A DNA stretch of 64,000 nt from a virus (IMGVR_UViG_3300051215_000059), one strand, 5' to 3'; counted from the stretch's first letter, positions 26-56,995 are shown. The notes: generated from the letters alone by a model not told the origin. Numbers and translations are program-made.

Positions 26-54
26 TTGACTTTCTGAACGAATCGCTGTATACA
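26..54 (+). promoter_or_regulatory. sigma70-like promoter TTGACT-17-TATACA with GAACGAATC box in spacer
   Basis: -35 TTGACT 26-31, 17-nt spacer containing GAACGAATC, -10 TATACA 49-54; RBS AGAGAGG and ATG 84 follow. Confidence 0.55.
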
Positions 55-83
55 TAATCTGTAGCCAAGAGAGAGGAAACACG

Positions 84-332
84 ATGAACAGCTTCATGAA
101 CGCCCTTTACAATGCTGAAGGTTCGGTTGTCACTGGTTATAAGAATGATGTGCCGTTTCTTGGTTACATCACCAAGACTCGTGTGAAGTATGGCAGCGAC
201 ATTCAAGTCACCATCGCATATGACGAAGATTCGATGAAAGAAACTGGGTATGGTGGCGACATCATTGACGGTTCGGTTCTCTTTGCTGGTGAAAACGGCA
301 CCTATCGCAATCTTCATGTTTACTTTGAGTGA
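84..332 (+). CDS. hypothetical protein
   Basis: ORF with RBS AGAGAGGAAAC 8 nt upstream, downstream of promoter; no recognisable motifs. Confidence 0.55.
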   Translation: MNSFMNALYNAEGSVVTGYKNDVPFLGYITKTRVKYGSDIQVTIAYDEDSMKETGYGGDIIDGSVLFAGENGTYRNLHVYFE

Positions 333-595
333 GCATGATGGCAAAGATGGTTGATACACGATGCAAGTGGTGCGGATGCGAAATGAGTGTCCGTGCCGCT
401 GATGTGGCAAGAGGGTGGGGCCGTTTCTGTTCCAAGTCTTGCAAAGCAAAAAACCAAGAAAAGAAAAACGGCCAATACAAAGCATACATGAATGGTCGTG
501 GTGTTAGCAATCTTCATCCAGAACGATTGAAAGATTACGAAACCTATGATGTTCATCCGTTTTCATCTGAAGGGTTGGGTCAATGGACAGACTAA
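329..595 (+). CDS. hypothetical Cys-rich (CxxC..CxxxC) small protein
   Basis: ATGA overlap with upstream gene; motif CKWCGC...FCSKSCK suggests zinc ribbon. Confidence 0.5.
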   Translation: MSMMAKMVDTRCKWCGCEMSVRAADVARGWGRFCSKSCKAKNQEKKNGQYKAYMNGRGVSNLHPERLKDYETYDVHPFSSEGLGQWTD

Positions 596-597
596 AT

Positions 598-738
598 ATG
601 AAAGTATACATCACTGAACGAGTGAAAGAACTGGATCATCTGATTTCCCAACAACCAGAGGGTTCCAACCATCGGTATGCGTTGATGGCTGGCAAATTTG
701 AACTTCTACAAATGGCAGTTGCGTTGAACCTTTGATAT
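598..738 (+). CDS. small hypothetical protein (46 aa)
   Basis: ATG 3 nt after previous stop, fills otherwise empty gap; below ORF-track cutoff. Confidence 0.25.
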
Positions 739-752
739 AATGGATAATAATA

Positions 753-986
753 ATGATAACATTTTGGGCGACTGTTTGGTATGCAGGGACAGTCGTTATG
801 GTTTTGGGATACGAAGGGCAATCTCTTGACCAATGCAACACTCTTTCGCAAATCATAAAAGATGATATTGCACTTACCTATGAAAATCCCACAGATGAAA
901 TAAAAAACAGCATTTACCCAACCAACAAGTTTGCTGTTACTTGCGAACAAAAAATCTTTTTACCACCAACGCAGGAGACAATATGA
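753..986 (+). CDS. hypothetical protein
   Basis: ORF in + strand gene train; hydrophobic N-terminus. Confidence 0.4.
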   Translation: MITFWATVWYAGTVVMVLGYEGQSLDQCNTLSQIIKDDIALTYENPTDEIKNSIYPTNKFAVTCEQKIFLPPTQETI

Positions 987-1147
987 TTGCTCTAAGTATT
1001 TTGATTGCTGGCTTTGTAATCGCAGACGCGATTATGTTTGTCAATGGATATAAGAGTTGGGCGTTCTTCGCCAAAACCGAACAAGAAAAGGCAGTTCGGC
1101 GGAAATGGTTTGCTGATCGTGGCATTGAATGGGATGGCAAAAAATGA
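983..1147 (+). CDS. small membrane protein (54 aa)
   Basis: internal ATG 983 preceded by GCAGGAGACA RBS; single TM helix IALSILIAGFVIADAIMF. Confidence 0.4.
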   Translation: MIALSILIAGFVIADAIMFVNGYKSWAFFAKTEQEKAVRRKWFADRGIEWDGKK

Positions 1148-1413
1148 TAATCCGCGAAGACAAGCACGGTCTTTACATTCGCAGTGGATGGTATATGGCC
1201 GATAAGTCTGCAAAAGCATTTCGGCCCGGTGACTTTTCTGGGCATAGCCATGCTTGGAATACAACGGATGCTGGCCTAAAGAAAGGCGACAAACCAAAAA
1301 CCTCGTATGTGAATGGAACATCATTCATTCGTATCAAGATGCCAGATGGCAGCAAGGTATATTGGGGTAGCTACGGGCGAACCGAAGGCGATTTTTCAGA
1401 GGAAAAGGCGTAA
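1144..1413 (+). CDS. hypothetical protein
   Basis: ATGA start-stop overlap with upstream ORF; no motifs. Confidence 0.5.
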   Translation: MIIREDKHGLYIRSGWYMADKSAKAFRPGDFSGHSHAWNTTDAGLKKGDKPKTSYVNGTSFIRIKMPDGSKVYWGSYGRTEGDFSEEKA

Positions 1414-1418
1414 GTCAG

Positions 1419-1760
1419 ATGGGTATCAATACGCACGTTTACACCTACTGGGGTGTTCGCACTGAATACAATCATGATTTGTCAGAAGACTTTGAAGAAG
1501 TATATGACGACATTGACCCTTCGCAGTATCTTTTTGATGGCATGAGTTGCGAATATATGGTGTTCGGCAATCGTCTATACGATTCTGGGGATGCACGTTG
1601 GGGAGAAATGAATAACTCTAACGAGATCGAAATCAACGATGAACTCTTGAACGAAATGAAAACAAACTTCATGACTGAGTTCAAAGAAAAGTTTCCAAAA
1701 CATTACGACTGGCTTGCTGAAAAGCCATGGAAACTTGTATCACTTGTTCATTACTCGTGA
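1419..1760 (+). CDS. hypothetical acidic protein
   Basis: ORF 113 aa, 5 nt after previous stop. Confidence 0.55.
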   Translation: MGINTHVYTYWGVRTEYNHDLSEDFEEVYDDIDPSQYLFDGMSCEYMVFGNRLYDSGDARWGEMNNSNEIEINDELLNEMKTNFMTEFKEKFPKHYDWLAEKPWKLVSLVHYS

Positions 1761-1767
1761 GAAAATA

Positions 1768-2052
1768 ATGGAAAAACTTGATTACTGTCCGTTCTGCGGG
1801 AATGGTGCTGGCGAAGATGGCATCAGTATCAACACTAGGCCGCATCGCTTGGGAATAAAGGCATACGTGAAGTGTGAGCATTGTTCTGCACAGGGTGGAA
1901 CTTTCATTGATGAAACCGAAGACGAAGCAATCGCATCTGCTGTTCGCGATTGGAACCAAAAGGACATTCGCCCTAATACGATTTGCCACAAAGTAAAGCG
2001 TTTCTTTGTTCAACTTGAATATGACCTACGAACTTGTTGGGGGCGATACTAA
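1768..2052 (+). CDS. Lar-family restriction alleviation protein-like (zinc ribbon)
   Basis: N-terminal DYCPFCG...CEHCSAQGG motif typical of Lar/zinc-finger anti-restriction family; ATG 1768 after AAAATA-rich RBS region. Confidence 0.5.
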   Translation: MEKLDYCPFCGNGAGEDGISINTRPHRLGIKAYVKCEHCSAQGGTFIDETEDEAIASAVRDWNQKDIRPNTICHKVKRFFVQLEYDLRTCWGRY

Positions 2053-2381
2053 TGTCAAGATACGTTGAATACTATGAGGTCAAGGACATTTATGCTTATC
2101 CGCCGCCAGAAAACTACGAATACTATGCGATGGCGATAGATAAGGATGCTCACAACAAGAAAAACTTTGACACCAGTTCTCGTCGTATTTGGCGATATGA
2201 TACAAAGACTGGTAATGTGTTTTATGAAAAGTATGATGGATGGACGGGCGAAAGCGCCCATTCTAAGTTTCAAGTTGACAAAGATGAGTTTCAACGTATT
2301 GCAATCGTTGCTGATCCTTGCCCATACTCCGAATACTACACAAATACACAACGCCTCAAAGCAAAAGGAATTATCAAATAA
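2052..2381 (+). CDS. hypothetical protein
   Basis: TAATG overlap with Lar-like gene. Confidence 0.55.
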   Translation: MSRYVEYYEVKDIYAYPPPENYEYYAMAIDKDAHNKKNFDTSSRRIWRYDTKTGNVFYEKYDGWTGESAHSKFQVDKDEFQRIAIVADPCPYSEYYTNTQRLKAKGIIK

Positions 2382-2499
2382 TGATTACAATCGCACTCAT
2401 TTTGGCACACGCATTTAGTAGCAACAAAAACTTTCAGCCAACCATTCTTTATCTTGGCACAATCATTGCCGACTGTGAGATTGCACGATACTTTTTTAC

Positions 2500-2528
2500 T
2501 TGACTTATTTTCCGAATCACTCTATATT
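2500..2528 (+). promoter_or_regulatory. sigma70-like promoter TTGACT-17-TATATT with CCGAATC box
   Basis: TTGACT 2500-2505, 17-nt spacer with CGAATC, TATATT 2523-2528; GGGAGATAGAGC RBS then ATG 2553. Confidence 0.55.
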
Positions 2529-2552
2529 GTATGAGTAATCGGGAGATAGAGC

Positions 2553-2774
2553 ATGACCAACGAAGAACTTGTCCGCAGAATGATTGACGTGCTGAAAGAG
2601 TTCGCAATGACTGCGACTTACGTTGATGCTCTTGACCTTGCCAAGCAACAGTTCGTCGCGAATGAAAGCACTCACAATGACTGGGACATCCTTGATGAAA
2701 ACTACAAGTTCATCAACGTGAAGTTTGCCGAAGCTGCAATTTATGAACTCACCACTGGCAAGGAAGTCAAGTAA
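2553..2774 (+). CDS. hypothetical protein
   Basis: first ORF after promoter, RBS GGGAGA. Confidence 0.55.
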   Translation: MTNEELVRRMIDVLKEFAMTATYVDALDLAKQQFVANESTHNDWDILDENYKFINVKFAEAAIYELTTGKEVK

Positions 2775-3250
2775 TGATTGAAGTCACTGGCGGAACCAAG
2801 AAACAACGTGAACTCGTTCAGAGCATTGCTGAGTATTCGGCAGTGAAGCTGTTGGGTTCGCGTCTTGCCGCTTCAGTGGAAATCAATATTGAACTTCGTC
2901 ATGACCTTGGCACTGCTCTTGGAAATGCAACTTGGGAAGATGACAATCATCGCCCTCGTGAGTTTACCATTGAAGTAAACGCCGCGAAACATATTCGCCT
3001 TCGTAGAATGCTGGAAACTGTCACGCATGAAATGGTTCATGTGAAGCAGTTTGCCAAAGGGGAAATGAAGGATTTGATGTCCCGTCCTGCTAACATTCGT
3101 AAGTGGATGGGCAAAGAAGTAGATATGAACACGATTTCCTACTGGGACTTGCCTTGGGAAATTGAAGCCTACGGACGCGAAGCTGGACTTTTTGTTCGGT
3201 GGGCAGAAGAAAATGACCTTGCAAAAGAAGAATGGACTCACGATGTTTGA
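2774..3250 (+). CDS. SprT-like zinc metallopeptidase domain protein (HExxH)
   Basis: motif TVTHEMVHVKQF (HExxH) in SprT-like context; assignment by motif only. Confidence 0.4.
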   Translation: MIEVTGGTKKQRELVQSIAEYSAVKLLGSRLAASVEINIELRHDLGTALGNATWEDDNHRPREFTIEVNAAKHIRLRRMLETVTHEMVHVKQFAKGEMKDLMSRPANIRKWMGKEVDMNTISYWDLPWEIEAYGREAGLFVRWAEENDLAKEEWTHDV

Positions 3251-3599
3251 AGGAAAACAATGGTTGGTTTATTGGGATAATACTGGATTTGAAGGTATTA
3301 TTGATGTAGGTACTCATCTTGAAAAAGAAGCATTTGACCTGTTGGTTCATGACAAACGCCAAGACCAAAGTATTTCGTCCATCTACAATATGATGACAAT
3401 GCGGGCGCGGTTCAATCCTCAACGCAATCCTGAAATCTGGACGTTCACATCCAATGAAGACATCACCGAAGAATCTCTACGCGAAGTAGCTGACCGTGAC
3501 CCTCAGTGGTTGGTGGATTGGATTCGTAAAAACGGAACCAAGATGTATGATGAACGTGAGATGTATGGTGAACGTGGAGCGAAACCGAGAATCACATGA
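3243..3599 (+). CDS. hypothetical protein
   Basis: internal ATG 3243 overlapping previous stop (ATGTTTGA); ORF track frame 3162-3599. Confidence 0.5.
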   Translation: MFEGKQWLVYWDNTGFEGIIDVGTHLEKEAFDLLVHDKRQDQSISSIYNMMTMRARFNPQRNPEIWTFTSNEDITEESLREVADRDPQWLVDWIRKNGTKMYDEREMYGERGAKPRIT

Positions 3600-3826
3600 A
3601 GATAGATAGGACTAAACACAAACCAAGCTGGCGTGTCCAAAAAGGATGCAACATTGAATGGTTTGAGCCACACCGTAAAGGCAAGGGTGTTGTCAAGAAA
3701 GTAATATGCGAACTCGACAAACTGTGGGGCAATGATCCAAAATATGTAATAGTTGATGATGTAGCACTTGGTGAAGTGACGGTTGATATCGGAAACATTA
3801 GAATACTCAAAGGAAAAAACAAATGA
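3596..3826 (+). CDS. hypothetical protein
   Basis: ATGA overlap both ends. Confidence 0.5.
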   Translation: MKIDRTKHKPSWRVQKGCNIEWFEPHRKGKGVVKKVICELDKLWGNDPKYVIVDDVALGEVTVDIGNIRILKGKNK

Positions 3827-4302
3827 AAACTAAACTTATGGCGGCTGTATTTGCTCTTGTTGGTAACGCAGCATTTGCAGATACTATCGTGGTTCAGGGT
3901 GAAGTAGTATCAGTAAACCCTGTTCGCTCGTATATTTCTGAAAGTGTTCCGCAGCAAGTTTGTCAAAATGTTCGGGTGACACGCCAACACACCCAAGACA
4001 ACCAAGTTGCTGGCGCAGTGATTGGTGCAGTGATTGGCAATCAGTTTGGCAGTGGAAGTGGTAAAGATGCTATGACCATTCTTGGTGCGATTGTTGGTGC
4101 AGAACAGGGACGTAAGAACAGCCATGTTCGCACCGAAACTACCAACCAAGTTGAATGCTTTACCGAATGGACCACAGTGAGAACTCACTATCGTCGCGGT
4201 TTTGAGACTGTGATTTTTGATGGTGCGCAATACCTGACTTTCCACACCGACCAACGTTTTCGTTACGGAGAGGTAGTGTCGTTCTACGTTCAAGTTCAAT
4301 AA
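3823..4302 (+). CDS. secreted glycine-zipper (SlyB / 17 kDa antigen-like) outer-membrane lipoprotein-like protein
   Basis: signal peptide MKTKLMAAVFALVGNAAFA; GAVIGAVIGNQFGSGSGKDAMTILGAIVGA glycine-zipper 2TM motif. Confidence 0.6.
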   Translation: MKTKLMAAVFALVGNAAFADTIVVQGEVVSVNPVRSYISESVPQQVCQNVRVTRQHTQDNQVAGAVIGAVIGNQFGSGSGKDAMTILGAIVGAEQGRKNSHVRTETTNQVECFTEWTTVRTHYRRGFETVIFDGAQYLTFHTDQRFRYGEVVSFYVQVQ

Positions 4303-4356
4303 AAGTGTCCCCAAATGATAAATACAGATGAGAGTTATTTACAGAGGGGATTGGTA

Positions 4357-5826
4357 ATGTTATTTCCAATTATTACATTTATTGTCGCGATTTCTATTGC
4401 AGTGATCGCGGCTTGGTTTTCTATCGCTGGTTTGATGGCGATATTTTCTGCTGCTGCGATACCAGTTGCATTGATGGCTGGTTCACTTGAAGTTGGTAAA
4501 TTAGTATCAGCTTCTTGGGTATATCGCAACTGGAAACGTGCGCCATTTTTGCTAAAATCTTATTTGACTGCTGCAACTGTAGTTCTAATGTTCATCACTT
4601 CGATGGGCATTTTTGGTTATTTGTCGAAAGCGCACTTGGAGCAATCTGCGCAAATGACTCAGGGGTCTGCGCAAGTTGAGCAATTTACCGCAGAAATTAC
4701 CAGCAAAGAACAAGAAATTGCGCTGTTGATGCAAAAAGCAACAGAGTTGCGTTCACAAGCCACAAACAATACTGCCAGTATTCAGGCACAGATTGATGCC
4801 GAACAGAAGCGTAAAGACGAAGCATATGCTCGTATTCAGCCAGCAATTGATGAGCAAAATGCTATCATTGCAAAAGAGCAAGGTGGCTCAAGTCCAGAAG
4901 TTCAAACATATCAGCGCAGAATAGACCAAATTGATGCTGAGTTGGCACAACTACAAACCTATATTGAACAAAACAATATTGCTCAATTGCAAGCAATGGT
5001 TGGTGTCAAAGCAGACGGTAATTATGGTTCACAAACTACTGCTGCTGTTGAAAGTTTCAAACAGCAAAAATCAAGCGAAAAAAATGCACTACTCGATTCA
5101 ATAGCGAAGGCGCAAACTAATGCTGACCAAACAAAGATTGATGCAGCCCGTGCAGAAATTACACGTTTGCGTTCATTGGCAGAACAAGAAGTCGCTGCAT
5201 CACAGTCAACTATTGACAGTCTGAGACAACAACTTACCACTGTTTCCACTATTGATAACAGCGCAGAAGTTCAAAAAGTTCAAACTCAAATCGATGCAGA
5301 GAACGAAGAACTCAAAAAAATGAAAGATGAAAAGTTTGCGTTAGAAACTGAAATACGCAAACTAGAAGCAGAAGTTGGACCAATCAAATATATCGCAGAG
5401 TTGGTATATGGGAACACTGACAAAAGCACAATTGACGTAGCAGTCCGTTGGCTAATCATCGTATTCATTTTTGTGTTTGACCCATTAGCAGTTCTATTGC
5501 TTATTGCTGCAAACTTCTCTTGGAAGCACCGCCATGATGATGACGGTGCTCAAGAAGAAATATTTGAAGCCATCTTTTCTCGTTCAAATGATGAACCAAA
5601 GGTAGAAAAATCTCTTGACAATCAAGAAGTTATGAGTGATAATAAACCTACCGATGAAGAAATCCAAGAACAGGAAATCGTCACCGAAAGTGAAAATGTT
5701 GATAATGAGCCTACTGCCGATGAAAAATCATACACCGTGATAAATAAACTAGAGGCAACGCCAGAGCCAACAATTATCAAAACGCCAAGAAAACCTAGCG
5801 GATGGTTAGATTACATTCGAAAATAA
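4357..5826 (+). CDS. membrane protein with N-terminal TM helices, long coiled coil, peptidoglycan-binding domain and C-terminal TM plus acidic tail
   Basis: RBS GAGGGGATTGG before ATG 4357; TM helices at both ends; Q/A/E heptad-rich centre; VKADGNYGSQTTAAVESFKQQ resembles PG_binding_1. Confidence 0.6.
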   Translation: MLFPIITFIVAISIAVIAAWFSIAGLMAIFSAAAIPVALMAGSLEVGKLVSASWVYRNWKRAPFLLKSYLTAATVVLMFITSMGIFGYLSKAHLEQSAQMTQGSAQVEQFTAEITSKEQEIALLMQKATELRSQATNNTASIQAQIDAEQKRKDEAYARIQPAIDEQNAIIAKEQGGSSPEVQTYQRRIDQIDAELAQLQTYIEQNNIAQLQAMVGVKADGNYGSQTTAAVESFKQQKSSEKNALLDSIAKAQTNADQTKIDAARAEITRLRSLAEQEVAASQSTIDSLRQQLTTVSTIDNSAEVQKVQTQIDAENEELKKMKDEKFALETEIRKLEAEVGPIKYIAELVYGNTDKSTIDVAVRWLIIVFIFVFDPLAVLLLIAANFSWKHRHDDDGAQEEIFEAIFSRSNDEPKVEKSLDNQEVMSDNKPTDEEIQEQEIVTESENVDNEPTADEKSYTVINKLEATPEPTIIKTPRKPSGWLDYIRK

Positions 5827-5835
5827 TGAGGAAAA

Positions 5836-7080
5836 ATGTCTGATAATAAAAACTACTCTTGCTCATTCTGTGGCAAGAACAAATCTGAAGTCAATACACT
5901 GATTGCAGGACCAGGAATTTATATTTGCGATGAGTGTATTGACTTATGCTATGACATTATTCATCAGAAGAAGTCAGAAAAACACGCAGCACTTGACAGT
6001 TTTCCCACACCAGAAGAAATCAAAGCACATCTTGACCAATACATTGTTGGTCAAGATGAGGCAAAAGAAGTCCTAAGTGTGGCAGTATACAATCACTACA
6101 AACGTATCAATCACTCAATGGATGACATTGAGATTGAAAAGTCAAACGTTATTCTACTTGGACCATCAGGGACGGGTAAAACTTTGATTGCAAAAACTGT
6201 CGCCAAAATCCTAGATGTTCCGTTTGCACAAGTTGACGCAACTACTCTTACCGAGAGTGGGTATGTTGGCGAAGACGTAGAAAATGTAGTTCAACGATTG
6301 TTGATCTCTGCCGACTTTGACGTAGAAAAGGCAGAGCGTGGAATCGTATACATTGATGAAATTGATAAGAAAGCCAAGAAGGGCGAAAACGTATCAATAA
6401 CAAAAGACGTATCTGGCGAAGGCGTCCAGCAAGCACTTCTCAAAATTGTAGAGGGAACGAAAGTTCGTGTTCCACCTGGTGGCGGAAGAAAGCACCCTGG
6501 CCAAGATATGATTGAAGTAGATACATCAAACATCTTGTTTGTTGTCGGTGGTGCATTTGTTGGTATTGACAAGATAATTGAAAAGCGTGTCAACAAAAAA
6601 AGTGGCATCGGATTTGGTGCAACAGTGAAGTCTGAAACGGATGAAGTAAATGTGCGAGAAAATATCTCTGCACAAGACCTTATCAAGTTCGGTCTTATTC
6701 CAGAGTTCATGGGACGTTTCCCCATTATCGTAGGCTTGGACAACCTGTCAGAAGAACAGCTTGTTCATGTTATGACTGCTCCCAAAAACAACATTGTTAG
6801 CCAGTTCATTCGTCTATTCCAATTGGATGAAGTTGAACTTGAATTCACTGAGGATGCAATTCGTGCGGTTGCAAAACAAGCCATAAATAATAAAACTGGG
6901 GCGCGTGGTCTTCGCAGTGTGATTGAGAAATCACTACTTCAACTACAATTCAAACTACCAACATTAGCAAAAGAGGGACTAACCAAGGTGATTATCACCA
7001 AAGAATTTATTGATGGAAGCAACAAACCAATCATGGTTTTCAACGACGAGCAAGGGTTCTCCGATACTCAAAATGACTAA
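5836..7080 (+). CDS. clpX: ATP-dependent Clp protease ATP-binding subunit ClpX
   Basis: N-terminal zinc-binding domain CSFCGK...CDECIDLC, Walker A GPSGTGKT, ClpP-docking IGFG loop, full-length 414 aa. Confidence 0.93.
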
Positions 7081-7597
7081 TCAATCAAATACTGTTGTTT
7101 ATAATGAATACATCAAGTATTCTGAAGTCCGTGTCGTTGACGAAGACGGAAGCCCACTTGGCGTGATGGAGATTTCAAAAGCAAGAAATCTTGCTTACGA
7201 TAAAAACTTGGATTTGGTGATTATAACTCATCAAAGCACTCCACCAGTTGCACGTATTGTTGACGTTGCTAAATATACCTACGAACAAAAGAAGCGTCAG
7301 AAAGATGCAGAAAAAAAGGCACGTCAAAATGTCGTTGAGGTCAAAGAGGTAAAAATCAGACCGGGTATTGGACCACATGATTTAGAAATCAAAATGAAGC
7401 AAGTTACAAAGTTTCTTGAGTCAAATGCGAAAGTAAAAATCACCATTCCACTTCGCGGTCGCGAAATCACTAAAGGTAATGATGTTCTTCAAAACATGGT
7501 TGATGATATCGCATCACTACTTACAAATTTCAAATATGAACAAGAACTGAAACAGTCAGGGAATAGAATCACAGGTGTTATAACAAAAGATGGCTAA
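7073..7597 (+). CDS. infC: translation initiation factor IF-3
   Basis: [15 protein letters not shown]...LDLVIIT...[20 protein letters not shown]...[18 protein letters not shown] matches IF3 N- and C-domains; ATG 7073 overlaps clpX stop. Confidence 0.85.
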
Positions 7598-7838
7598 ACA
7601 TTATATAAAAGGCAATGACCAAGAGCGAAATATAAAATCAGGGACAACTGTCACTGTAAAAAATGGAAATGTTGAACGTGCAATTCGTAGGTTCAAAAAG
7701 CTATGCGTGGATGAGAATATCATTCAAGAATATCGCGACCGTCAAGAATATGTAGGCGGAAGCGAAAAGCGTAGAAAAGACAAGGATGCGGGCAAAAAGC
7801 GATGGCAGAAGAAATTGCGCCAGATGCGCAGCGAATAA
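7590..7838 (+). CDS. rpsU: ribosomal protein S21
   Basis: VKNGNVERAIRRFKKLCVDENIIQEYRDRQEY...KRRKDK matches S21 signature (ALRRFKR.CEK...E.RRRE.YEKP..RKR). Confidence 0.75.
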   Translation: MAKHYIKGNDQERNIKSGTTVTVKNGNVERAIRRFKKLCVDENIIQEYRDRQEYVGGSEKRRKDKDAGKKRWQKKLRQMRSE

Positions 7839-8071
7839 TAGACCTAGACCGCTTAGACCTTAGAACCCTTCAAAAAGAATCGTCCCGTGCATTACTGACA
7901 ATGAACGGGACGAATGATGGTATAGCAAAATTCAATAAGGTCGCACATCATAACTCACAACTTTGGTATAAGGCTGTGATACAGTCTTATATTGATGAGC
8001 ATGGTGGATTGCCCAGTGAGGTAGGACCAGCCAAAGATTTTCAACTTTTTTCAGAAAAACTTGGTCTATAA
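7802..8071 (+). CDS. hypothetical protein (start uncertain, overlaps S21 3' end)
   Basis: ORF 89 aa; real start may be downstream. Confidence 0.35.
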   Translation: MAEEIAPDAQRIIDLDRLDLRTLQKESSRALLTMNGTNDGIAKFNKVAHHNSQLWYKAVIQSYIDEHGGLPSEVGPAKDFQLFSEKLGL

Positions 8072-8075
8072 ATGC

Positions 8076-8104
8076 TTGACAAATAACAAAAAAGTTGTTA
8101 TATT
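8076..8104 (+). promoter_or_regulatory. sigma70-like promoter TTGACA-17-TATATT
   Basis: TTGACA 8076-8081, spacer 17, TATATT 8099-8104, upstream of Hsp20 gene. Confidence 0.6.
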
Positions 8105-8191
8105 ATGTGAGTAAAGTTTCATAATGATTTGAACTTTACTGTGACGCCAAAAATGGGTCACTACAATTCTTGCTTATCTAAGGAGAAAAAA

Positions 8192-8629
8192 ATGACACAA
8201 CGCAGAATTACAACTTCAACCCTTCCAAATCTATATAGCGCAACCATTGGTTTTGACAAACTACTTAGTGCGTTGGACGCTCAATTGAACAGTGTCAATA
8301 GTGGCGGATACCCCCCATACAATGTCGCCCAAATCAACGACAATGAGTATATGGTTACTCTTGCTGTTGCTGGATTTGGAATGGATAATCTGGAAATTAC
8401 TCGTGATAAAAACATCCTGAGAATTGAAGGAACTCCACCAAAAGGTGACGAGGAAGTAAACTACCTTCACAAAGGTATTGCGGGTCGTTCATTCCGTAGA
8501 GAGTTCACTCTTGCGGATCATATCGAAATCGCAAACGCAGACTTGGAACTTGGAATGTTGAATATTCATTTGGTCCGAGTTGTTCCACCAGAACTACAAC
8601 CAAAGCGTATCGCGATTACTCAACGATAA
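8192..8629 (+). CDS. small heat shock protein, Hsp20/IbpA family
   Basis: AAGGAGAAAAAA RBS then ATG 8192; alpha-crystallin domain YNVAQINDNEYMVTLAVAGFGMDNLEI...GIAGRSFRREFTLAD. Confidence 0.85.
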   Translation: MTQRRITTSTLPNLYSATIGFDKLLSALDAQLNSVNSGGYPPYNVAQINDNEYMVTLAVAGFGMDNLEITRDKNILRIEGTPPKGDEEVNYLHKGIAGRSFRREFTLADHIEIANADLELGMLNIHLVRVVPPELQPKRIAITQR

Positions 8630-8637
8630 TTCAAACA

Positions 8638-8664
8638 GAGGGGCTGAACAAGCCCCTCACCTTT
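8638..8664 (+). terminator. stem-loop after hsp20 (weak T tract)
   Basis: GAGGGGCT-gaaca-AGCCCCTC 8-bp stem followed by ACCTTT. Confidence 0.4.
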
Positions 8665-8678
8665 AGCGGATAGAAACA

Positions 8679-8981
8679 ATGGCAATAGCAGAAGTAAAAT
8701 CATCAAGTCGCACCGAAATAGAAATTACCGAACCTCTCAACTATTATGTTGTTATGCATAATGATGACACAACTCCAATGGATTTTGTGATTGAGGTTCT
8801 TGCAGAAATTTTTCATCATGATAATCAGACCGCAGTTGACTTGACGATGAAAATTCACGAAGAAGGCAAAGCAATTGTTGGAATGTATAATCTGGAAATT
8901 GCAGAGCAGAAAGTTTCAGATGTATCGTATGTTGCAAAAGCGCACGATTATCCTTTGAAGACTACTGTGGAGCCAGCCTAA
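8679..8981 (+). CDS. clpS: ATP-dependent Clp protease adaptor ClpS
   Basis: YYVVMHNDDTTPMDFVIEVLAEIFHHD...AVDLTMKIHEEGKAIVG matches ClpS core. Confidence 0.85.
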   Translation: MAIAEVKSSSRTEIEITEPLNYYVVMHNDDTTPMDFVIEVLAEIFHHDNQTAVDLTMKIHEEGKAIVGMYNLEIAEQKVSDVSYVAKAHDYPLKTTVEPA

Positions 8982-9700
8982 TGCCGATTGGCGTAATCTC
9001 TGCTATACCAGAAGAATATTCAAAACTATCTTGGGACACTGAACCAAGAACTGAAACAATCATCAACAAAATATTTCAATTTGGCACGATCAACGGCGTT
9101 GAAGTAATCGCGGCAGAATGTGGCATCGGCAAAGTAAACGCTGCCATGACAACTTCCTTACTGTTGGGTCATTACAATTGCGATGGTATCATTTTCAGTG
9201 GCGTTGCCGGCGGAATCAATCCGATACTTGATATTGGTCAAGTCATCATTGCGGACGAACTTATTCAGCATGATTATGGCACCATGTCAAAAAGCGTGTT
9301 TTTCAATGCTATCCCTGGTAGTTTTCCGGGTTACACAGAAGATGACAAGAACGTGTCATACAAAATGCCAACTGCAATGAAGAACACGATACGTCACCTT
9401 CTTGGTCCAGACCATGACGTTCACTTTGGAAAAGTCCTAACAGGTGACACGTATGTTGCTTGTAGCGTTACACGTGAACAACTAAGAAACAAATTTGGTG
9501 CAGATGCGGTTGAAATGGAAGGCGCAGCAATTGCGCAAGTGTGTTGTAACTGGAATAAGCCTTTCATCGTCATTCGTGTGTTGAGTGACTTGGCAGGAAA
9601 CACTTCGCATTTTGACTTTGATACATTTGTAGATGAAAGCAGCGAAAAAGCTGCAAGTTTGACACAAAAACTATTACCTATATTGGACGCTTGGCTATGA
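8981..9700 (+). CDS. mtnN: 5'-methylthioadenosine/S-adenosylhomocysteine nucleosidase
   Basis: PNP/UDP phosphorylase fold motifs GIGKVNAAMTTSLLL, FSGVAGGINP, AVEMEGAAIAQVC. Confidence 0.8.
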   Translation: MPIGVISAIPEEYSKLSWDTEPRTETIINKIFQFGTINGVEVIAAECGIGKVNAAMTTSLLLGHYNCDGIIFSGVAGGINPILDIGQVIIADELIQHDYGTMSKSVFFNAIPGSFPGYTEDDKNVSYKMPTAMKNTIRHLLGPDHDVHFGKVLTGDTYVACSVTREQLRNKFGADAVEMEGAAIAQVCCNWNKPFIVIRVLSDLAGNTSHFDFDTFVDESSEKAASLTQKLLPILDAWL

Positions 9701-10206
9701 TAGTATACACCACTTGTTACAGACGTGGGTTTGAACTGGTCACATCAAACGTGTGGGAAGTTACTGACGAAAGCGGGCATGTTGGTTACGTAAACACCTC
9801 CGTCTCGCCATATCAATCATGTGACCCACCAGAATATATTCAAACTTCTGCGACCGAAAACCCCGTAATTGCATTGCCAAAAAATGCAAAAGTAATAGAA
9901 AAAAGACTTGACACCAAAGCCGATTCTGTAGTATATTCAAATCCTGACGAACTAAAGTTCTACAAAGATAGAGTTGCAGAACTTGAAAGACAAATATCAT
10001 TGAAACCAAACACTGACGTTGAGTTAGTAGACAGATGGAGGTTGCAGTTTAGGTGGTATGGCTCTTGGGGAGAAATTTACCAAGAGTGGGGATTTGAAAC
10101 ACACAAGCAAGCCGAAAATAGACTAAAACACTGGGTCGATACGTTTGGAGAAAAGTTTGAAGACGTAAAGATCATTCCATACAAAATCAACAGAGAAGGA
10201 CTATAA
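9691..10206 (+). CDS. hypothetical protein
   Basis: 171 aa ORF in gene train. Confidence 0.5.
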   Translation: MAMIVYTTCYRRGFELVTSNVWEVTDESGHVGYVNTSVSPYQSCDPPEYIQTSATENPVIALPKNAKVIEKRLDTKADSVVYSNPDELKFYKDRVAELERQISLKPNTDVELVDRWRLQFRWYGSWGEIYQEWGFETHKQAENRLKHWVDTFGEKFEDVKIIPYKINREGL

Positions 10207-10207
10207 A

Positions 10208-10450
10208 ATGGGTAAGAAAGCATCTGGTAAGCATTACACTTCAAAGGGTGAGCGTATCGGTTCAATGAAGACAGCAACACGTGACCCTGCTGCACGAGTT
10301 ATGAACCAGCTAAAAGCATGGCAAGCTGGCAAGAACGTGGTGGTTACCATTGAAAACCCAAACAAGAATGAAACCAATAAGAAGTTCATTCGCGTGAACG
10401 CTCGTGACATTTACGGTGATCCCCGTAAGAAAACGGGCTTTATGATCTAA
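10208..10450 (+). CDS. hypothetical basic protein
   Basis: 80 aa, starts 2 nt after previous stop; followed by terminator. Confidence 0.5.
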   Translation: MGKKASGKHYTSKGERIGSMKTATRDPAARVMNQLKAWQAGKNVVVTIENPNKNETNKKFIRVNARDIYGDPRKKTGFMI

Positions 10451-10476
10451 TAAAAAAGCATTTGTTTTACCAACTC

Positions 10477-10504
10477 AACGCAGCCTTTATGGCTGCGTTT
10501 TTTG
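10477..10504 (+). terminator. rho-independent terminator
   Basis: AACGCAGCC-tttat-GGCTGCGTT followed by TTTTT. Confidence 0.7.
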
Positions 10505-10537
10505 ATAAATACATCAAATGGAAGTTGGAGACAATCA

Positions 10538-11401
10538 ATGAAAATGATGCAAATCATAACCGAAGGACTGAGTGATATACTGTATCACTCCACCAGTTTA
10601 TATAATGTTCTGAGTATTCTAAAAAATAATAAACTTCAACTGACTCCTGACCTTGGCACAAACGCAGAGGTAAAACTGCGAAAGAAAAACAGAATCTATT
10701 ACATGAGTTTTGCCAGAAGCAAAATGGGAGACTATCATCAACCAAGTCAGTATGCTGGAAACCTTGCACTGTTAGTATTTGATGGCAGACAACTAAAACA
10801 AGATGGCTATACTGGCAACCCAGTTGACTATTGGGGATGGGGCGACAAGGATGAAATGGAAGACCGTCTGTTTAGCAGAAAACCATACATTGAAGATGCC
10901 GCAAAATACGTAAAAGAAATACACGTATTCTATAAAAAAGAAGCAGATGACGAGTTCAAAGCAAAGAGCATAAGATGGCTACGAGCAGCTTATATTATGG
11001 CAAGAAAACTTGGAATTGAAATGTATGTCTATGACGATATTGAAGCATTCAAGCTATTGAACAAGTCTAAATCTGTAAGTATTTCAACATTGAAATATGA
11101 TACAAACCAGCAACAATTGAAACCATATTCTCGTCAATCAAAAAACTATTTTGCTCCGTATATGGAACTGTTATCGGTTACCGACCGTTCAAAACTCAGC
11201 AAAGACGCAAGACGCCTTCTATATAATATGGATGGATACTATAAGGATGACGCCAAGCGTTCACTAGCGGCAGATATTCATAACTCAAGAACCAGTTCTG
11301 GCCGACCACAGTTGGACAAGTTTTTAGCCAAGGTTGCATCCCTACGTCTTTCAAGTGTTGAGGAAATCGTGGATTACATAGAAAACAAATTCAAAGAATA
11401 A
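10538..11401 (+). CDS. hypothetical protein with DarT-like / H-Y-E ADP-ribosyltransferase-like N-terminal motifs
   Basis: ATG 10538 (MKMMQ); ILYHSTSLYNVLSIL resembles the DarT IYHITHIDNL..IL NAD-binding motif, followed by YYMSF; assignment speculative. Confidence 0.5.
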   Translation: MKMMQIITEGLSDILYHSTSLYNVLSILKNNKLQLTPDLGTNAEVKLRKKNRIYYMSFARSKMGDYHQPSQYAGNLALLVFDGRQLKQDGYTGNPVDYWGWGDKDEMEDRLFSRKPYIEDAAKYVKEIHVFYKKEADDEFKAKSIRWLRAAYIMARKLGIEMYVYDDIEAFKLLNKSKSVSISTLKYDTNQQQLKPYSRQSKNYFAPYMELLSVTDRSKLSKDARRLLYNMDGYYKDDAKRSLAADIHNSRTSSGRPQLDKFLAKVASLRLSSVEEIVDYIENKFKE

Positions 11402-11436
11402 TACGATAAATACTCATAGTTGTTGGGAGAGGCACT

Positions 11437-12435
11437 ATGAATTTTATTATTTCGTATCTTTTGAGATACGTTTTCCAAGCGTGGCTGATTTCAAAATTGG
11501 CCAAATATATAAGAAAAACAATCGTAAACAAATACAAATTGGACGAACACTTTGTCCAAAACACAGAACGCTTTGCGGAAATTGATTGGGCCAATATTCG
11601 CTGGTTCGCAGTTCTTGCCGCATATGCATATAAAATAAACGATGATGTGATACGAAAAAAGTATGAAACATTTTCGGACATTTACATTCATGAAATAAAC
11701 CAAGTAAAATATATAGTCCTAAAAGACGTAGCGAATAAGAAGTATTACATTTCTATTCGTGGAACAACCAATTCCCACAATGCACTACAAGACATAAACT
11801 TTCTCAAGGACAAAAGTTTTCGTTTGGGAATACATCTGCACACAGGCTTTCACAGAACAGCAGAACTTATTGCAGATGACCTACTAAACCGTTTGGACAA
11901 AACATACAGTATATATCTAACTGGTCATAGTCTTGGTGCTGCACAAGCAGTTATTGTGGCATGGTATTTAGATTACAGTAACTTCAATATAGCCGAGTGC
12001 ATCACCTTCGGTCAGCCAAAGATTACAGATTCAATTGGAACTCGTGTGATGAGAGGAAAGATAAAACTTACTCGTATCGTCAACGAAACTGATATTGTGT
12101 CCATGGTTCCGCCAACTGGAACACATAGAAATAGATATGCACACCTTGGCACATTGATAAAGCTACTTGAAAGAGGCAAATACTGTTATTTGGATGAACC
12201 AGACAGCATGAACTATGGCGTGAATAGCTTTTGGTTATTTGCGGCAGAAGAAAGTTTGTCTTTTTATGAAATAGGAAAAGAACTACCAGACCATTACATG
12301 ACAAGTTACATTTCAAATATTGATTCAATCTTAGAAGATGGAAAAGAAGTGCTGTGGAAAGACCGAATGATGTATCTATCAGACAATAGTATATCTGGGG
12401 AACTGAAAAAAGTTACAGAAATGGAGATTGAATAA
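11437..12435 (+). CDS. class 3 (fungal-type) lipase family alpha/beta hydrolase with N-terminal TM anchor
   Basis: nucleophile elbow LTGHSLGAAQA (GHSLG), ISIRGT motif, hydrophobic N-terminus. Confidence 0.75.
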   Translation: MNFIISYLLRYVFQAWLISKLAKYIRKTIVNKYKLDEHFVQNTERFAEIDWANIRWFAVLAAYAYKINDDVIRKKYETFSDIYIHEINQVKYIVLKDVANKKYYISIRGTTNSHNALQDINFLKDKSFRLGIHLHTGFHRTAELIADDLLNRLDKTYSIYLTGHSLGAAQAVIVAWYLDYSNFNIAECITFGQPKITDSIGTRVMRGKIKLTRIVNETDIVSMVPPTGTHRNRYAHLGTLIKLLERGKYCYLDEPDSMNYGVNSFWLFAAEESLSFYEIGKELPDHYMTSYISNIDSILEDGKEVLWKDRMMYLSDNSISGELKKVTEMEIE

Positions 12436-12848
12436 TGTATGAATATAGATGTGTAGTGATTGAAGTCATAGATGGCGACACGGTAGAAGTAGATATTGAC
12501 TTGGGTTTTGGAGTATGGATGCGCTCAGAGCATATCCGTATTCAAGGTGTAGACACACCAGAAAGTAAAACAACAAACAAAGAAGAAAAAGTATTTGGAT
12601 TGCTGGCAAAGAAACATGTGGAAGGTTTACTTCCCGTTGGAAAAGAGTGCACACTGATGTCAATGGAGTTCAGAGGAAAATTTGGTAGAATTTTGGGTGA
12701 CATAAAAGTGGACGGTGTAACTCTGAGTGAATCGCTAATTTCTAATCATTTGGCCGTTCCCTACAATGGAGAGAACAAAAAACTGGTGACTGACGCCCAT
12801 CTTGCTAATAGAAAAATCCTCATAGAACAGGGTAAAGTGACACTATAA
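12435..12848 (+). CDS. thermonuclease (SNase-like) family nuclease
   Basis: VIDGDTVEVDID...IRIQGVDTPES matches staphylococcal nuclease fold signature. Confidence 0.7.
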   Translation: MYEYRCVVIEVIDGDTVEVDIDLGFGVWMRSEHIRIQGVDTPESKTTNKEEKVFGLLAKKHVEGLLPVGKECTLMSMEFRGKFGRILGDIKVDGVTLSESLISNHLAVPYNGENKKLVTDAHLANRKILIEQGKVTL

Positions 12849-12926
12849 TTCAAGTTTTTTATAAATAATATAAGTTGTCAGATATAAGGCAACCAGCGAA
12901 AATGGACTAACTCTCAGGAATAATAA

Positions 12927-12955
12927 AGCCCTACATTACTGTAGGGCTTTTTTTA
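12927..12955. terminator. bidirectional rho-independent terminator between convergent genes
   Basis: AGCCCTACA-ttac-TGTAGGGCT followed by TTTTTTT on + and A/T-rich on -. Confidence 0.7.
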
Positions 12956-13687: not shown

Positions 13688-13709
13688 TGAGAAATCCTTT
13701 CAACTGTTC

Positions 13710-13738
13710 TTGACATACATGTATTTATCTGCTACTAT
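13710..13738 (+). promoter_or_regulatory. sigma70-like promoter TTGACA-17-TACTAT
   Basis: TTGACA 13710-13715, spacer 17, TACTAT 13733-13738; divergent from minus-strand gene. Confidence 0.5.
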
Positions 13739-13779
13739 GAAAAACATAGAATCAACATTGACACTCAACGAGGAAGAAA

Positions 13780-14040
13780 ATGACTGCCACTAATACCCAT
13801 GAATTTGAGTTTGTGTTCACAAATCGTGAACAGTTTTATGCGGTTGTAAACACTCTAAACAAGGAATGCGGAAAGGGCAAGTGGACTATTCGCGGTAGGG
13901 TTTTGAAAAGCCTGAAGCGGTCAGAACAATACACTTGGCTTTCCTCAAACACTGCCATTCGTAAAGTGGTAGTGGTTCCGAAGGAGAACGCAGACGTAGA
14001 AGCGTTTCTACGGTTTGTTCACTCACCAGACCTAAAGTAA
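13780..14040 (+). CDS. hypothetical protein
   Basis: RBS AGGAAGAAA before ATG. Confidence 0.55.
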   Translation: MTATNTHEFEFVFTNREQFYAVVNTLNKECGKGKWTIRGRVLKSLKRSEQYTWLSSNTAIRKVVVVPKENADVEAFLRFVHSPDLK

Positions 14041-14047
14041 GGAACAG

Positions 14048-14613: not shown

Positions 14614-14616
14614 CCG

Positions 14617-16480: not shown

Positions 16481-16491
16481 ACTTGACTTCA

Positions 16492-16536: not shown

Positions 16537-16540
16537 CTAA

Positions 16541-54774: not shown

Positions 54775-55160
54775 AAGTTGGATTGAGTTTTAGTCGTTGC
54801 CTTCGCGACATTTTTGAAGGAAAAGTTGACTATCATGATGTGTTGGTGATTGTCGCCAGAACAGATGTTGATCCAAACATTGACTCAGAATGGAATCAGA
54901 TTTGGGAAGGCTATACCCGTGGTGGATGGTCAAATCCAGAATGGTCCGCACATATTGACAATTATGATGAGTTTAGAAAGCTGGCAGTCAAGCTATACAG
55001 TGGTGGAAAAATACATCAACCACGTAAATTTGGAACACATCCACTTCGGTTGAATTATTACTGGCTTGATTGTGCTGTTCCTGTTGATGAACTTGAAAAC
55101 GTTCCCGCAGTAAAAGAAGCATGGGAACATTACCAAATGCTTGCTGGACTATGTAGCTAA
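54771..55160 (+). CDS. hypothetical protein, paralogue of previous gene
   Basis: ATGA overlap; C-terminal AVKEAWEHYQMLAGLCS. Confidence 0.5.
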   Translation: MKVGLSFSRCLRDIFEGKVDYHDVLVIVARTDVDPNIDSEWNQIWEGYTRGGWSNPEWSAHIDNYDEFRKLAVKLYSGGKIHQPRKFGTHPLRLNYYWLDCAVPVDELENVPAVKEAWEHYQMLAGLCS

Positions 55161-55170
55161 GGAAAAGAAA

Positions 55171-55599
55171 ATGAGTGTTATTGAAAAACTAAAAGCTGAA
55201 TCCATCGCACTGCGTAAAACTCGCAGTCCCATTGCGCCATCCATTCTTTTTGCACTTAGCGAAATTGAAAAGGTTGGCAAGAATAACGGCAACCGCGAAA
55301 CCACAGAAGACGAAGCCATCAAGGTTATTCAGAAACTTATCGTCACTATTGACGAAAACTTGAAGCTGAATATTGATGATGGTCGGCGTGTTGCTCTAAA
55401 CTTTGAAAAGAATATTCTTTCTGGTGTTCTGCCACAAATGGCCTCAGAAGAAGAAATTCGTTCAAAGCTGGTATTCGCCTTCGGTGGCAAACAGGTCCAA
55501 AATAAGGGCGAGATTATGAAGTGGGCAAAGTCTCACTGGGGTGTTCTTGCCGACATGAAACAAGTTGGCGCAATTGCGTCTGAACTGTTTGGCGTATAA
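55171..55599 (+). CDS. GatB/YqeY-domain protein
   Basis: AGGAAAAGAAA RBS; IEKLKAESIALRK...TEDEAIKVIQKLI resembles YqeY. Confidence 0.55.
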   Translation: MSVIEKLKAESIALRKTRSPIAPSILFALSEIEKVGKNNGNRETTEDEAIKVIQKLIVTIDENLKLNIDDGRRVALNFEKNILSGVLPQMASEEEIRSKLVFAFGGKQVQNKGEIMKWAKSHWGVLADMKQVGAIASELFGV

Positions 55600-55613
55600 A
55601 GAATAGGAAAATA

Positions 55614-56153
55614 ATGACAATACATGCAATGATTGATTTGGAGACGCTTGATGTGTCTCCAACAGCACAAGTTTTATCCATCGGTGGGGTAAAATTTAAT
55701 CCAAACAGTAAAGAAAATCCATTTGATGAGTTTTTCTATCGGGTGGATATTGACTATCAGGAAAGCACTGGTAGAACGGTAAGCACAGAAACGTTGGATT
55801 GGTGGTCCACACAAGACAAAGACGCAATTGAAATGGCGTTCTCACCAGAAGGGCGTGTTTCCCCACATGAAATGCTTCGCCATTTGAAAAAATGGTATGT
55901 TGGCTGTGATGCCATCTGGTCACAACGTATTTTGATGGACGTTGGAATTATACAAAACATGTGCAAGCAATACGATTCTCCCGTTCCTTGGCCATACTGG
56001 GCAATCAAAGACAGTGCCACACTGTTTAGTATTTTGCCAGACGACCCAAGGAAAGCATACACGTTTTTGAAGCATGACCCACTACAGGATGCGAAATTTC
56101 AAGCAAAATCCGTCCAAGATGCTATCGCCACATTGGGTTTGAATATCCGATGA
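55614..56153 (+). CDS. DEDD-family 3'-5' exonuclease (Rv2179c-like exoribonuclease fold)
   Basis: Exo I motif MIDLETLD, later DAIW and H...D motifs. Confidence 0.55.
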   Translation: MTIHAMIDLETLDVSPTAQVLSIGGVKFNPNSKENPFDEFFYRVDIDYQESTGRTVSTETLDWWSTQDKDAIEMAFSPEGRVSPHEMLRHLKKWYVGCDAIWSQRILMDVGIIQNMCKQYDSPVPWPYWAIKDSATLFSILPDDPRKAYTFLKHDPLQDAKFQAKSVQDAIATLGLNIR

Positions 56154-56422
56154 CTAACATAGTAAGTTTGGATGAATATCGGTCCAAAAAAGAAGACTCT
56201 ACCTATCGTCCGCAAGACGAAGTAGAGTCTCTTGAACTCATGAAATCCATTATCACCATACTTTTGAAATACAAATACAATGCGTATGACGTGCAAACAG
56301 CAGAGAATATGATTTTACTGAGCATGTTATTTCAAGCACACATCAATCATTTGAATGATATTGACGATGACTTATTTGAAGTTTTCTCTCTCATTAGTGA
56401 AAGGCTGACAAACAATGAATAA
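56150..56422 (+). CDS. hypothetical protein
   Basis: 90 aa. Confidence 0.45.
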   Translation: MTNIVSLDEYRSKKEDSTYRPQDEVESLELMKSIITILLKYKYNAYDVQTAENMILLSMLFQAHINHLNDIDDDLFEVFSLISERLTNNE

Positions 56423-56963
56423 TGCACTATCATTTGTTGTTTACGATAAATACAACCACAACAATAATAATAACAAGGAATACAAAGAATTGAGTGGGGA
56501 CATTATTACCGAACAGGGACGAAAACAAATTTTGGAAAAAATTCAAATTCTTTCCAAAAAGAAACCACTAATTTCTGAGCAAATTAAAGATGCCAGAGAA
56601 AACGGGGGCGTAGAAGAAAATGAAGAATTTTCTATGGCACTCGAAGAAATGATGAGATTGGATATGGAGATTGCAAAACTCCAATTCATAGCAGAAACAT
56701 ATACTATCATACCAACAAAAGCAAAGGGGGAATATAGTAAGGTCGAAGTTGGGCTGAGTGTGACTGTGAAAAACTTATCGACTGACAAAATTATAACATA
56801 CACAATCCTTGGAGAGACGGACAGCAATCCGTCTGAGGGCGTTATAAGTCATAGATCGCCAGTTGGAAAAGAACTATTAGGATGTTCAATTGGTGATATT
56901 GCTTATATTGAACGAAACAAAGATTATATAGAACTCGAAATTTTGAAAATTTTCGCAAAATAA
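56415..56963 (+). CDS. transcript cleavage factor GreA/GreB-like protein
   Basis: N-terminal coiled-coil ARENGGVEENEEFSMALEE; C-terminal FKBP-like ILGETDSNPSEGVISHRSPVGKELLGCSIGDIAY. Confidence 0.65.
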   Translation: MNNALSFVVYDKYNHNNNNNKEYKELSGDIITEQGRKQILEKIQILSKKKPLISEQIKDARENGGVEENEEFSMALEEMMRLDMEIAKLQFIAETYTIIPTKAKGEYSKVEVGLSVTVKNLSTDKIITYTILGETDSNPSEGVISHRSPVGKELLGCSIGDIAYIERNKDYIELEILKIFAK

Positions 56964-56966
56964 TCA

Positions 56967-56995
56967 TTGACACGACCGACGAATCAGAATATAAG
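56967..56995 (+). promoter_or_regulatory. sigma70-like promoter TTGACA-17-TATAAG with GACGAATC box
   Basis: TTGACACGACCGACGAATCAGAATATAAG. Confidence 0.55.

Follow-up and report, generated by a model that had tools for sequence, protein, structure and literature searches.

In this study, we describe a class of sigma70-type promoters found in a 64,000-nucleotide (nt) stretch of viral DNA (IMGVR_UViG_3300051215_000059, hereafter the window), whose source is an uncultured freshwater jumbo phage of about 350 kb. These promoters carry a short conserved box in the spacer between the -35 and -10 hexamers. Judged from the sequence, this box is a functional promoter element, with the core CGAATC(R) at -22 to -16 of the non-template strand, and it defines a promoter class both in this phage and in a broad aquatic clade that includes T4-like, pelagimyophage-like relatives. 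We tentatively propose that a GcrA-like sigma70 cofactor could dock at the box and would compensate for a weak -10 hexamer, a reading to which we give somewhat less than an even chance.

When positions are numbered so that the -10 hexamer spans -12 to -7, the box promoters of the window follow the consensus TTGAC(A/T)-N7-CGAATC-N4-TATAnn with a 17-nt spacer; the box covers -22 to -17, is followed by a purine at -16 and sits in mid-spacer. All eight promoters listed in a preliminary description of this DNA are present on the + strand at their coordinates; the account of their geometry needed correction. First, CGAATC had been placed 8-9 nt after the -35 hexamer, a pattern that yields no match as written; the true distance is 7 nt. 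Second, the box had been assigned to the -16/-15 extended region, downstream of where it really lies, and -15/-14 are C/T and not TG. Third, CGAATC was said always to end 4 nt before the -10 hexamer, which holds for seven of the eight sites and fails at 31063 (N6/N5). Finally, the full GAACGAATC is present at the first and fourth sites, as reported, but it is not exclusive to them, site 16979 carrying it too. The expectation that the motif would exceed chance was borne out: CGAATC-N4-TATA occurs six times in the window against 0.03 expected, and TTGACW-N7-CGAATC-N4-TATA, with at most two mismatches, seven times against 0.13 expected. Nine of the 16 + strand copies of CGAATC in the window lie inside promoter spacers. 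The window holds nine box promoters, and the 83 kb of this genome that we sampled (the window plus 10-kb flanks, L121 and L119) hold 19. The window sites, with one variant, are the following:

26-54, + strand: box promoter TTGACT-TTCTGAA-CGAATC-G-CTG-TATACA (N7/N4); the L140 ortholog has an altered 5' spacer and retains the box.
2500-2528, + strand: box promoter TTGACT-TATTTTC-CGAATC-A-CTC-TATATT, first of a gene run toward ClpX, IF3 and S21; the box is retained in the orthologs of L140, L141 and the distant relative L226 (ClpX 79% identical).
16979-17007, + strand: box promoter TTGACA-AACTGAA-CGAATC-A-ATA-TAGATT.
17233-17261, + strand: box promoter TTGACA-AACTGAA-CGAATC-A-CGC-TATAAG; ortholog at L140:21140.
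31063-31091, + strand: box promoter in which CGAATC is shifted upstream by 1 nt, 5' of an SPFH/Band-7 gene.
40850-40878, + strand: box promoter TTTACA-TTCTACA-CGAATC-G-TCG-TATATT.
41425-41453, + strand: box promoter TTGACA-TTCCTGA-CGAATC-A-CTG-TATACA, 5' of an RNA-ligase operon.
56967-56995, + strand: box promoter TTGACA-CGACCGA-CGAATC-A-GAA-TATAAG, between GreA-like and cell-wall hydrolase genes; the L138 copy is identical.
57564-57592, + strand: ninth box promoter, N8/N3, TTGACA-ACGATATA-CGAATC-TGC-TATAAA, with the box 1 nt further downstream; the L138 ortholog has a wholly different 5' spacer and retains ACGAATCTG.
63602-63630, + strand: variant in which AGAATCA (complement TGATTCT) is shifted upstream by 2 nt, of uncertain family membership; AGAATCATACTG is kept in L138.

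The box is under strong purifying selection. We compared eight orthologous, in-register promoters between this genome and its 356-kb relative CACUWB010000001.1. The 5' half of the spacer was substituted at 22 of 56 positions (39%) and the CGAATC core at none of 48 (Fisher p = 1.8e-7), while changes were also rare at the purine at -16 (1/8, G to A), in the 3' part of the spacer (2/24), in the -35 hexamer (1/48) and in the -10 hexamer (0/48). The earlier proposal of a class-specific cis element is upheld by this difference, by conservation in distant relatives, the box being kept in phages whose ClpX is only 72-79% identical, and by the linkage to -10 hexamers without T at -7 that is described below.

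These data also bear on the idea that the box is functionless and that the promoters are mobile cassettes made alike by recombination, as with PeSL (promoter-early stem-loop) cassettes, which they resemble and which are known from T4-like phages. It is true that several of the promoters come after terminator hairpins and that some pairs in the window (for example 26/41425 and 16979/17233) share extended leaders. However, homogenisation would keep whole cassettes, and PeSL cassettes are near-identical repeats, whereas the box copies differ in their upstream flanks and, as seen above, in the 5' half of the spacer, only the hexamers, the box and the +1 region being constant. Moreover, the same 7-mer is found across lineages whose proteins are only 35-79% identical. 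We strongly disfavour this idea, which we find hardly credible.

Independent support for box sites as real promoters is provided by a phage transfer-messenger RNA (tmRNA) gene located about 8.3 kb upstream of the window in the same genome (L121 1648-1997). It is permuted, in two pieces, and encodes the tag ANENFAPVAYALAA. The box promoter at L121 1652-1680 predicts a start at 1687-1688, and the tmRNA_permuted model begins at L121:1687, at this predicted +1. The same phage encodes ClpX, ClpP and ClpS, which would act on tmRNA-tagged proteins.

The promoter class is widespread among phages. Scanning IMG/VR with TTGACW-N5-RACGAATC-N4-TATA returned at least 117 loci and at least 131 unique sites, and many of the matched contigs have two to five same-strand copies with common flanks. 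Read from 5' to 3', the sites listed share an A/T-rich segment and C/G ahead of TTGACA, then five positions with hardly any constraint, (A)ACGAATC(A) and c-T-n, and lastly TATA-a-(a/t), with R-T-A-R conserved where transcription is predicted to begin. Many box-bearing contigs have proteins in common with the window, or with pelagimyophages and Melnitz, a T4-like marine myophage, and some contain T4-like baseplate genes. By contrast with phages, bacterial and archaeal genomes (185,579 species, one genome each) gave eight scattered matches to a stricter 19-base pattern, which is about the chance level; the box promoter is therefore of phage type and does not belong to a host or a prophage. A blastn search with short promoter queries returned no match, and a string search of the literature found no description of the motif; in the papers on Melnitz and the pelagimyophages, promoters were predicted by BPROM only and the box is not mentioned. 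Melnitz itself (L118, MZ577097.1), whose host is OM43, has no box in its first 50 kb, the part that was scanned. Its early promoters have another, palindromic spacer box, TTTGTTnnnAnAACAnG (e.g. at 3952, 6198, 31702, 32277, 33499, 38659 and 38992), with flanks and a +1 motif as in the box family, which suggests that a spacer-binding factor may have been swapped in the Melnitz lineage.

What exactly is conserved can be delimited from the degeneracy of these sites. Immediately 5' of the core all four bases occur; the core itself starts with C, seldom with A, and the base after the core, unconstrained in the IMG/VR search pattern, is A in 85% and G in 12% of the matches listed. Within the lineage of this phage, variation is confined to an A in place of the first C of the core and to a choice of A or G at the position that follows the core. 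Because the 5' neighbour is free while the core and the following purine are constrained, the functional unit is the heptamer [C>A]GAATC[A>G].

On the opposite strand, this heptamer becomes [T>C]GATTC[G>T], or YGATTCK, and most commonly takes the form TGATTCG, with 97% Y at the following-base position among the IMG/VR matches listed. The MEME consensus for Caulobacter GcrA is TGATTCG and, more broadly, YGAKTCK (PMC4647560), within which the box complement falls; even the AGAATCA found in the L141 ortholog of promoter 16979 is permitted by YGAKTCK. The GcrA box is built on GANTC, which is adenine-methylated (m6A) by CcrM, and TGATTCG was co-crystallised with the GcrA DNA-binding domain, seven of its seven bases being contacted (PMC5887438). 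GcrA is a monomeric cofactor that sits on sigma70 domain 2, the domain handling the -10 element, and it stimulates open-complex formation; in the promoters that it activates, the boxes are centred at about -20, in the spacer (PMC4647560). The scaffold used for cryo-electron microscopy of the GcrA-RNA polymerase complex, taken from PcsM, reads TTGACA-CCCGGG-CG(m6A)ATC-CCTGC-TATAAT on the non-template strand (PMC9976885). Its hexamer and strand are those of our main class, at an offset of 1 nt, and its geometry is identical to that of site 31063. Indeed, GAATC lies at -21 to -17 in the main class, with its centre at -19, and at -22 to -18 at site 31063, the GcrA range being -20 +/- 1.

The GcrA-activated promoters of Caulobacter crescentus, such as PcsM, thus agree with the box promoters in the heptamer and the degeneracy that it allows, in its strand and in where it lies within a spacer of 17 bp. 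In both cases, an asymmetric, monomer-sized site is set inside an otherwise sigma70-type promoter, the box promoters having TTGACA and TATAnn hexamers 17 nt apart. A chance match in sequence, degeneracy, strand and position together is unlikely. There are also differences: the sites described here are on lytic phage DNA and not on a host chromosome, they are known from sequence alone, their hexamers are of the E. coli-like TTGACA/TATA type in DNA of 40% G+C, and the central N of GANTC is always A/T. The known part of the arrangement would be a sigma70 promoter with a GcrA-type spacer cofactor site, and the new part the presence of such a site on phage DNA. A factor-binding site, first suggested with a phage transcription factor or a modified host RNA polymerase in mind, is plausible, and the match would favour a host GcrA-type sigma70 cofactor over a phage transcription factor.

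Since GcrA boxes are also known downstream of transcription starts (+2 to +30), two further sites may be members of the family. One is the promoter at 24723, listed below, and the other is a promoter-like site (62535-62590) inside the open reading frame (ORF) 61619-62728, with a top-strand TGATTCG at about +8 to +14, which is kept in the 356-kb relative.

As the core holds GAATC, a GANTC site, the box might be a methylation site only, read without GcrA, its full, hemi- or unmethylated state setting promoter activity and acting as a replication-coupled clock. CcrM-dependent promoters are known in Caulobacter (PMC3973325), and L099 (IMGVR_UViG_3300043463_000021), a contig that bears the box and shares its sample of origin with the window, has three DNA methyltransferases. 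However, conservation extends to seven bases, beyond the four of GANTC: N is A in every case, and the complement admits only Y and K as flanks, which indicates a reader more specific than the methyltransferase. In addition, the L099 enzymes resemble generic beta-class enzymes. We regard this explanation as very improbable. The three L099 genes are adjacent (6054-9775), two encoding enzymes of the PF01555 beta class and one an enzyme of the D12 Dam-like class. As to a CcrM-like methyltransferase, matches were found in L099 only; the best matches in the PDB are generic beta-class enzymes, of unassignable specificity.

We also found that the box is linked to a weak -10 hexamer. T at -7 is missing in 15 of the 19 box promoters of the sampled genome, against 4 of 15 box-less TTGACA-N17 sites (p = 0.005), the hexamers of the former being TATACA, TATAAG and TATAAA. 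At -7, T is present in 47% of the IMG/VR sites listed and, in box-less sister phages, in nearly all predicted promoters. Sites 26 and 17233 are missed by a generic sigma70 scan because this T is absent. By analogy with GcrA, a cofactor on sigma domain 2 that speeds open-complex formation would offset the missing T, and the weak -10 therefore favours an activating role of the box over a purely repressive one. Four promoters described earlier as lacking the box (8076, 24723, 32759 and 38183) do lack it, and we list them here with 63320:

8076-8104, + strand: box-less promoter with TATATT, T at -7; in L140 the spacer drifts freely and the hexamers and leader are kept.
24723-24751, + strand: box-less promoter with a CGAATCA copy at 24785, about 27 nt past the predicted start.
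32759-32787, + strand: box-less promoter after a terminator hairpin.
38183-38211, + strand: box-less promoter with the -10 hexamer between the arms of a perfect 11-bp inverted repeat, ACTCCAGTTAG (38191-38201) and CTAACTGGAGT (38223-38233); the repeat looks like a dimeric operator and would hence mark a different regulatory class.
63320-63348, + strand: box-less promoter; the L138 spacer has diverged and the -35, -10 and leader are kept.

An association with non-consensus -10 hexamers could also be expected if the box were read by the holoenzyme itself, through sigma region 3, the sigma non-conserved region or the beta-prime zipper, or if it set the shape or twist of the spacer; in both cases it would be a strength element acting in cis only, which offsets the weak hexamer. 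Sigma70 promoters are known to respond to spacer sequence, and the box promoters have other traits of an extended consensus, with C/G at -36, an A/T-rich upstream segment and RTAR at +1, comparable to T4-type early promoters. Nevertheless, a near-invariant 7-bp word that contains G/C and stands beside free neighbours points to base-specific reading by a protein, the spacer words of sister lineages are very different although RNA polymerase is just as conserved there, and no such promoters are present in host genomes. This makes direct reading by the holoenzyme, or an effect of spacer shape, quite improbable.

The likeness to T4-type early promoters deserves comment. These are likewise strong and sigma70-like, with G/C just 5' of the -35 hexamer and an A/T-rich upstream segment, and they likewise precede many small, novel, same-strand ORFs, often after a terminator hairpin. 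Their consensus, by contrast, has no conserved 7-mer at -22 to -16 in published T4-like descriptions (PMC1524935). For the window phage itself, the extended consensus and the gene context agree with a T4-type early promoter, the T4-like baseplate genes being in some related contigs; neither the window nor its 10-kb flanks showed a T4 core gene.

Three known promoter elements were considered and set aside. In extended -10 promoters, such as those of HTVC008M and Mosig, an extra element 5' of the -10 hexamer is likewise present and able to offset a weak core; in the IMG/VR matches listed, -15 is C in 49% and -14 is T in 78%, which does not correspond to TGn, and the box lies further upstream. 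MerR-type operators are dyad-symmetric and lie in 19-20 bp spacers, whereas the box is asymmetric and the spacer has the optimal 17 bp. Finally, the MotA box of middle promoters (TGCTTtA, at -30) is absent and a consensus TTGACA is found at -35.

The main rival to a GcrA-like cofactor is a protein not related to GcrA, encoded by the phage or brought in with the virion, that binds the spacer with the box as its operator; it could be a repressor that shuts early promoters in place of the absent AsiA/MotA, or an activator of a delayed class. Such a protein would fit with the other spacer elements found at homologous promoters of related lineages (TTTGTTnnnAnAACAnG in Melnitz, TGn in HTVC008M and Mosig), with the near-absence of the box promoter from bacterial genomes and with the lack of a GcrA gene in the sampled phage DNA. 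On the other hand, an asymmetric 7-bp site is odd for a dimeric phage repressor, a pure repressor leaves the loss of the -7 T in box promoters unexplained, and no candidate protein was identified. The identity to TGATTCG, the degeneracy, the strand and the position near -20 would, moreover, be left as coincidence. We consider this rival somewhat unlikely.

With respect to the host, the best Rfam score of the phage tmRNA is for alpha_tmRNA (RF01849, 114.8 bits), and an alpha-type tmRNA is also found on three further box-bearing contigs. Many box-bearing contigs are Melnitz-like or pelagimyophage-like; CcrM is present in SAR11 (PMC3973325), which has been placed among the genomes with CcrM and GcrA (PMC2877005). 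These observations are suggestive of an alphaproteobacterial host.

Returning to the GcrA-like cofactor, we can propose the following mechanism. A monomeric cofactor, for which the GcrA of an alphaproteobacterial host would be the candidate, would be held on sigma70 domain 2. Its helix-turn-helix would enter the spacer's major groove from the side opposite the polymerase and would read a GAATC site carrying N6-methylation set by CcrM or a phage enzyme of this kind. Both the binding of the polymerase and the formation of the open complex might then be stabilised at promoters that lack the critical T at -7. The presence of GcrA or a functional analogue at the box, the adenine methylation, the alphaproteobacterial host and the time of firing are here what we infer.

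Several observations weigh against this mechanism. A tblastn search of the window, 64 kb of the ~350-kb genome, and of about 1.2 Mb of DNA from box-bearing phages returned no GcrA DNA-binding domain; the same query does match 40%-identical domains in Lactobacillus phages, and GcrA domains are present in cultured Brucella, Lactobacillus, Caulobacter and other phages, all unrelated to this one. Conversely, 80 GcrA-encoding IMG/VR contigs, with a mean of 62% G+C, have no box promoters. The cultured SAR11 myophages HTVC008M and Mosig lack the box and have TGn extended -10 promoters instead, no spacer-embedded boxes were seen in the 50 kb examined of the T4-like Sinorhizobium phage phiM12, and a published GcrA-motif scan of alphaproteobacterial phages found no positional signal (PMC9437464). 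The observed/expected ratio (O/E) of GANTC is 0.67 in the window, a mild depletion that is not motif-specific, compared with 0.40 in GcrA-encoding phage contigs. As to position, three N8/N3 variants are centred at -18 and the 63602 variant at -21, which is borderline or outside -20 +/- 1. Melnitz has an alpha-type tmRNA and yet infects an OM43-clade methylotroph, a non-alphaproteobacterium, so that the tmRNA type is no proof of the host. Finally, the different spacer boxes of different lineages fit a co-evolving, phage-encoded spacer-binding protein equally well.

GANTC frequencies also differ among the other phages examined. In HTVC008M (L125-L127, NC_020484.1), GANTC is depleted ten-fold and specifically (O/E 0.10), seven other palindromic pentamers having values of 0.53-1.52; O/E is about 0.5 in Mosig and 0.92 in Melnitz. 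Restriction avoidance is no obvious cause of the depletion in HTVC008M, because the pelagimyophage paper reports a restriction-modification system in only one of more than 100 SAR11 genomes.

The broadest form of the proposal, in which a very large clade of uncultured aquatic phages (~140 to 350 kb) would run a promoter class through host GcrA-sigma70 and CcrM-type methylation, is in our view unlikely. If true, the methylation state of the phage DNA, injected or newly replicated, and the stage of the host cell cycle would gate phage expression, and the box would be a sequence-only marker of an alphaproteobacterial host. Should the GcrA reading as such hold, no earlier phage promoter class would have been shown to depend on GcrA/CcrM, the epigenetic system of alphaproteobacteria, and phage expression would be tied to the host cell cycle and to DNA methylation state. 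The reading would also suggest a means of temporal control in aquatic T4-like phages without MotA/AsiA, such as Melnitz and T4-like cyanophages, and the box would be a cheap marker for assigning hosts to hundreds of uncultured large phages. Should another factor bind the box, it would still be an unusually clean element of seven bases under strong selection; promoters without it in the same genome serve as natural controls, and sister lineages carry boxes of their own, which makes the search for the trans factor directly testable.

The genome that carries these promoters has close relatives among uncultured phages, CACUWB010000001.1 (GCA_902725615.1, 356 kb) and JGI 3300012348, which are 86% identical at the DNA level and 350-356 kb in size; megablast of positions 1-20000 of the window against INPHARED gave no match to a cultured phage. 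Nearly all genes of the window are on the + strand and are mainly small ORFs mixed with host-like genes (ClpX, IF3, S21, HSP20, ClpS, ClpP, a GreA-like protein, SbmA/BacA, GMP reductase, an RNA ligase and an S8 protease). The sole clear minus-strand gene of the window is at 12953-13687, with a bidirectional terminator hairpin (12925-12950) at its boundary.

Neither tRNAs nor Rfam families were detected within the window. Two ORF-free stretches, 57593-57882 (~290 nt) and 60997-61618 (622 nt), are found 3' of promoters; they match no tRNA or Rfam family, and the second opens with a conserved TTGACCGAATCATAGAGTCTATGATAC. Both may be non-coding RNA genes. The gene just 5' of promoter 56967 (56415-56963) encodes a GreA/GreB-like transcript-cleavage factor that is kept in relatives (17 members in its 90%-identity cluster) and may remodel the host RNA polymerase.

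Finally, the module ClpX-IF3-S21-(HSP20)-ClpS (5836-8981 in the window; L226, L227 and L228) is kept down to 72% ClpX identity. Of the best 120 ClpX homologues from a collection of 5.8 billion proteins, the two whose gene context was checked (79% and 72% identical) both lie in this phage ClpX-IF3-S21-ClpS module and gave no cellular donor of ClpX. The sharing of this module points to a very large clade of uncultured phages.

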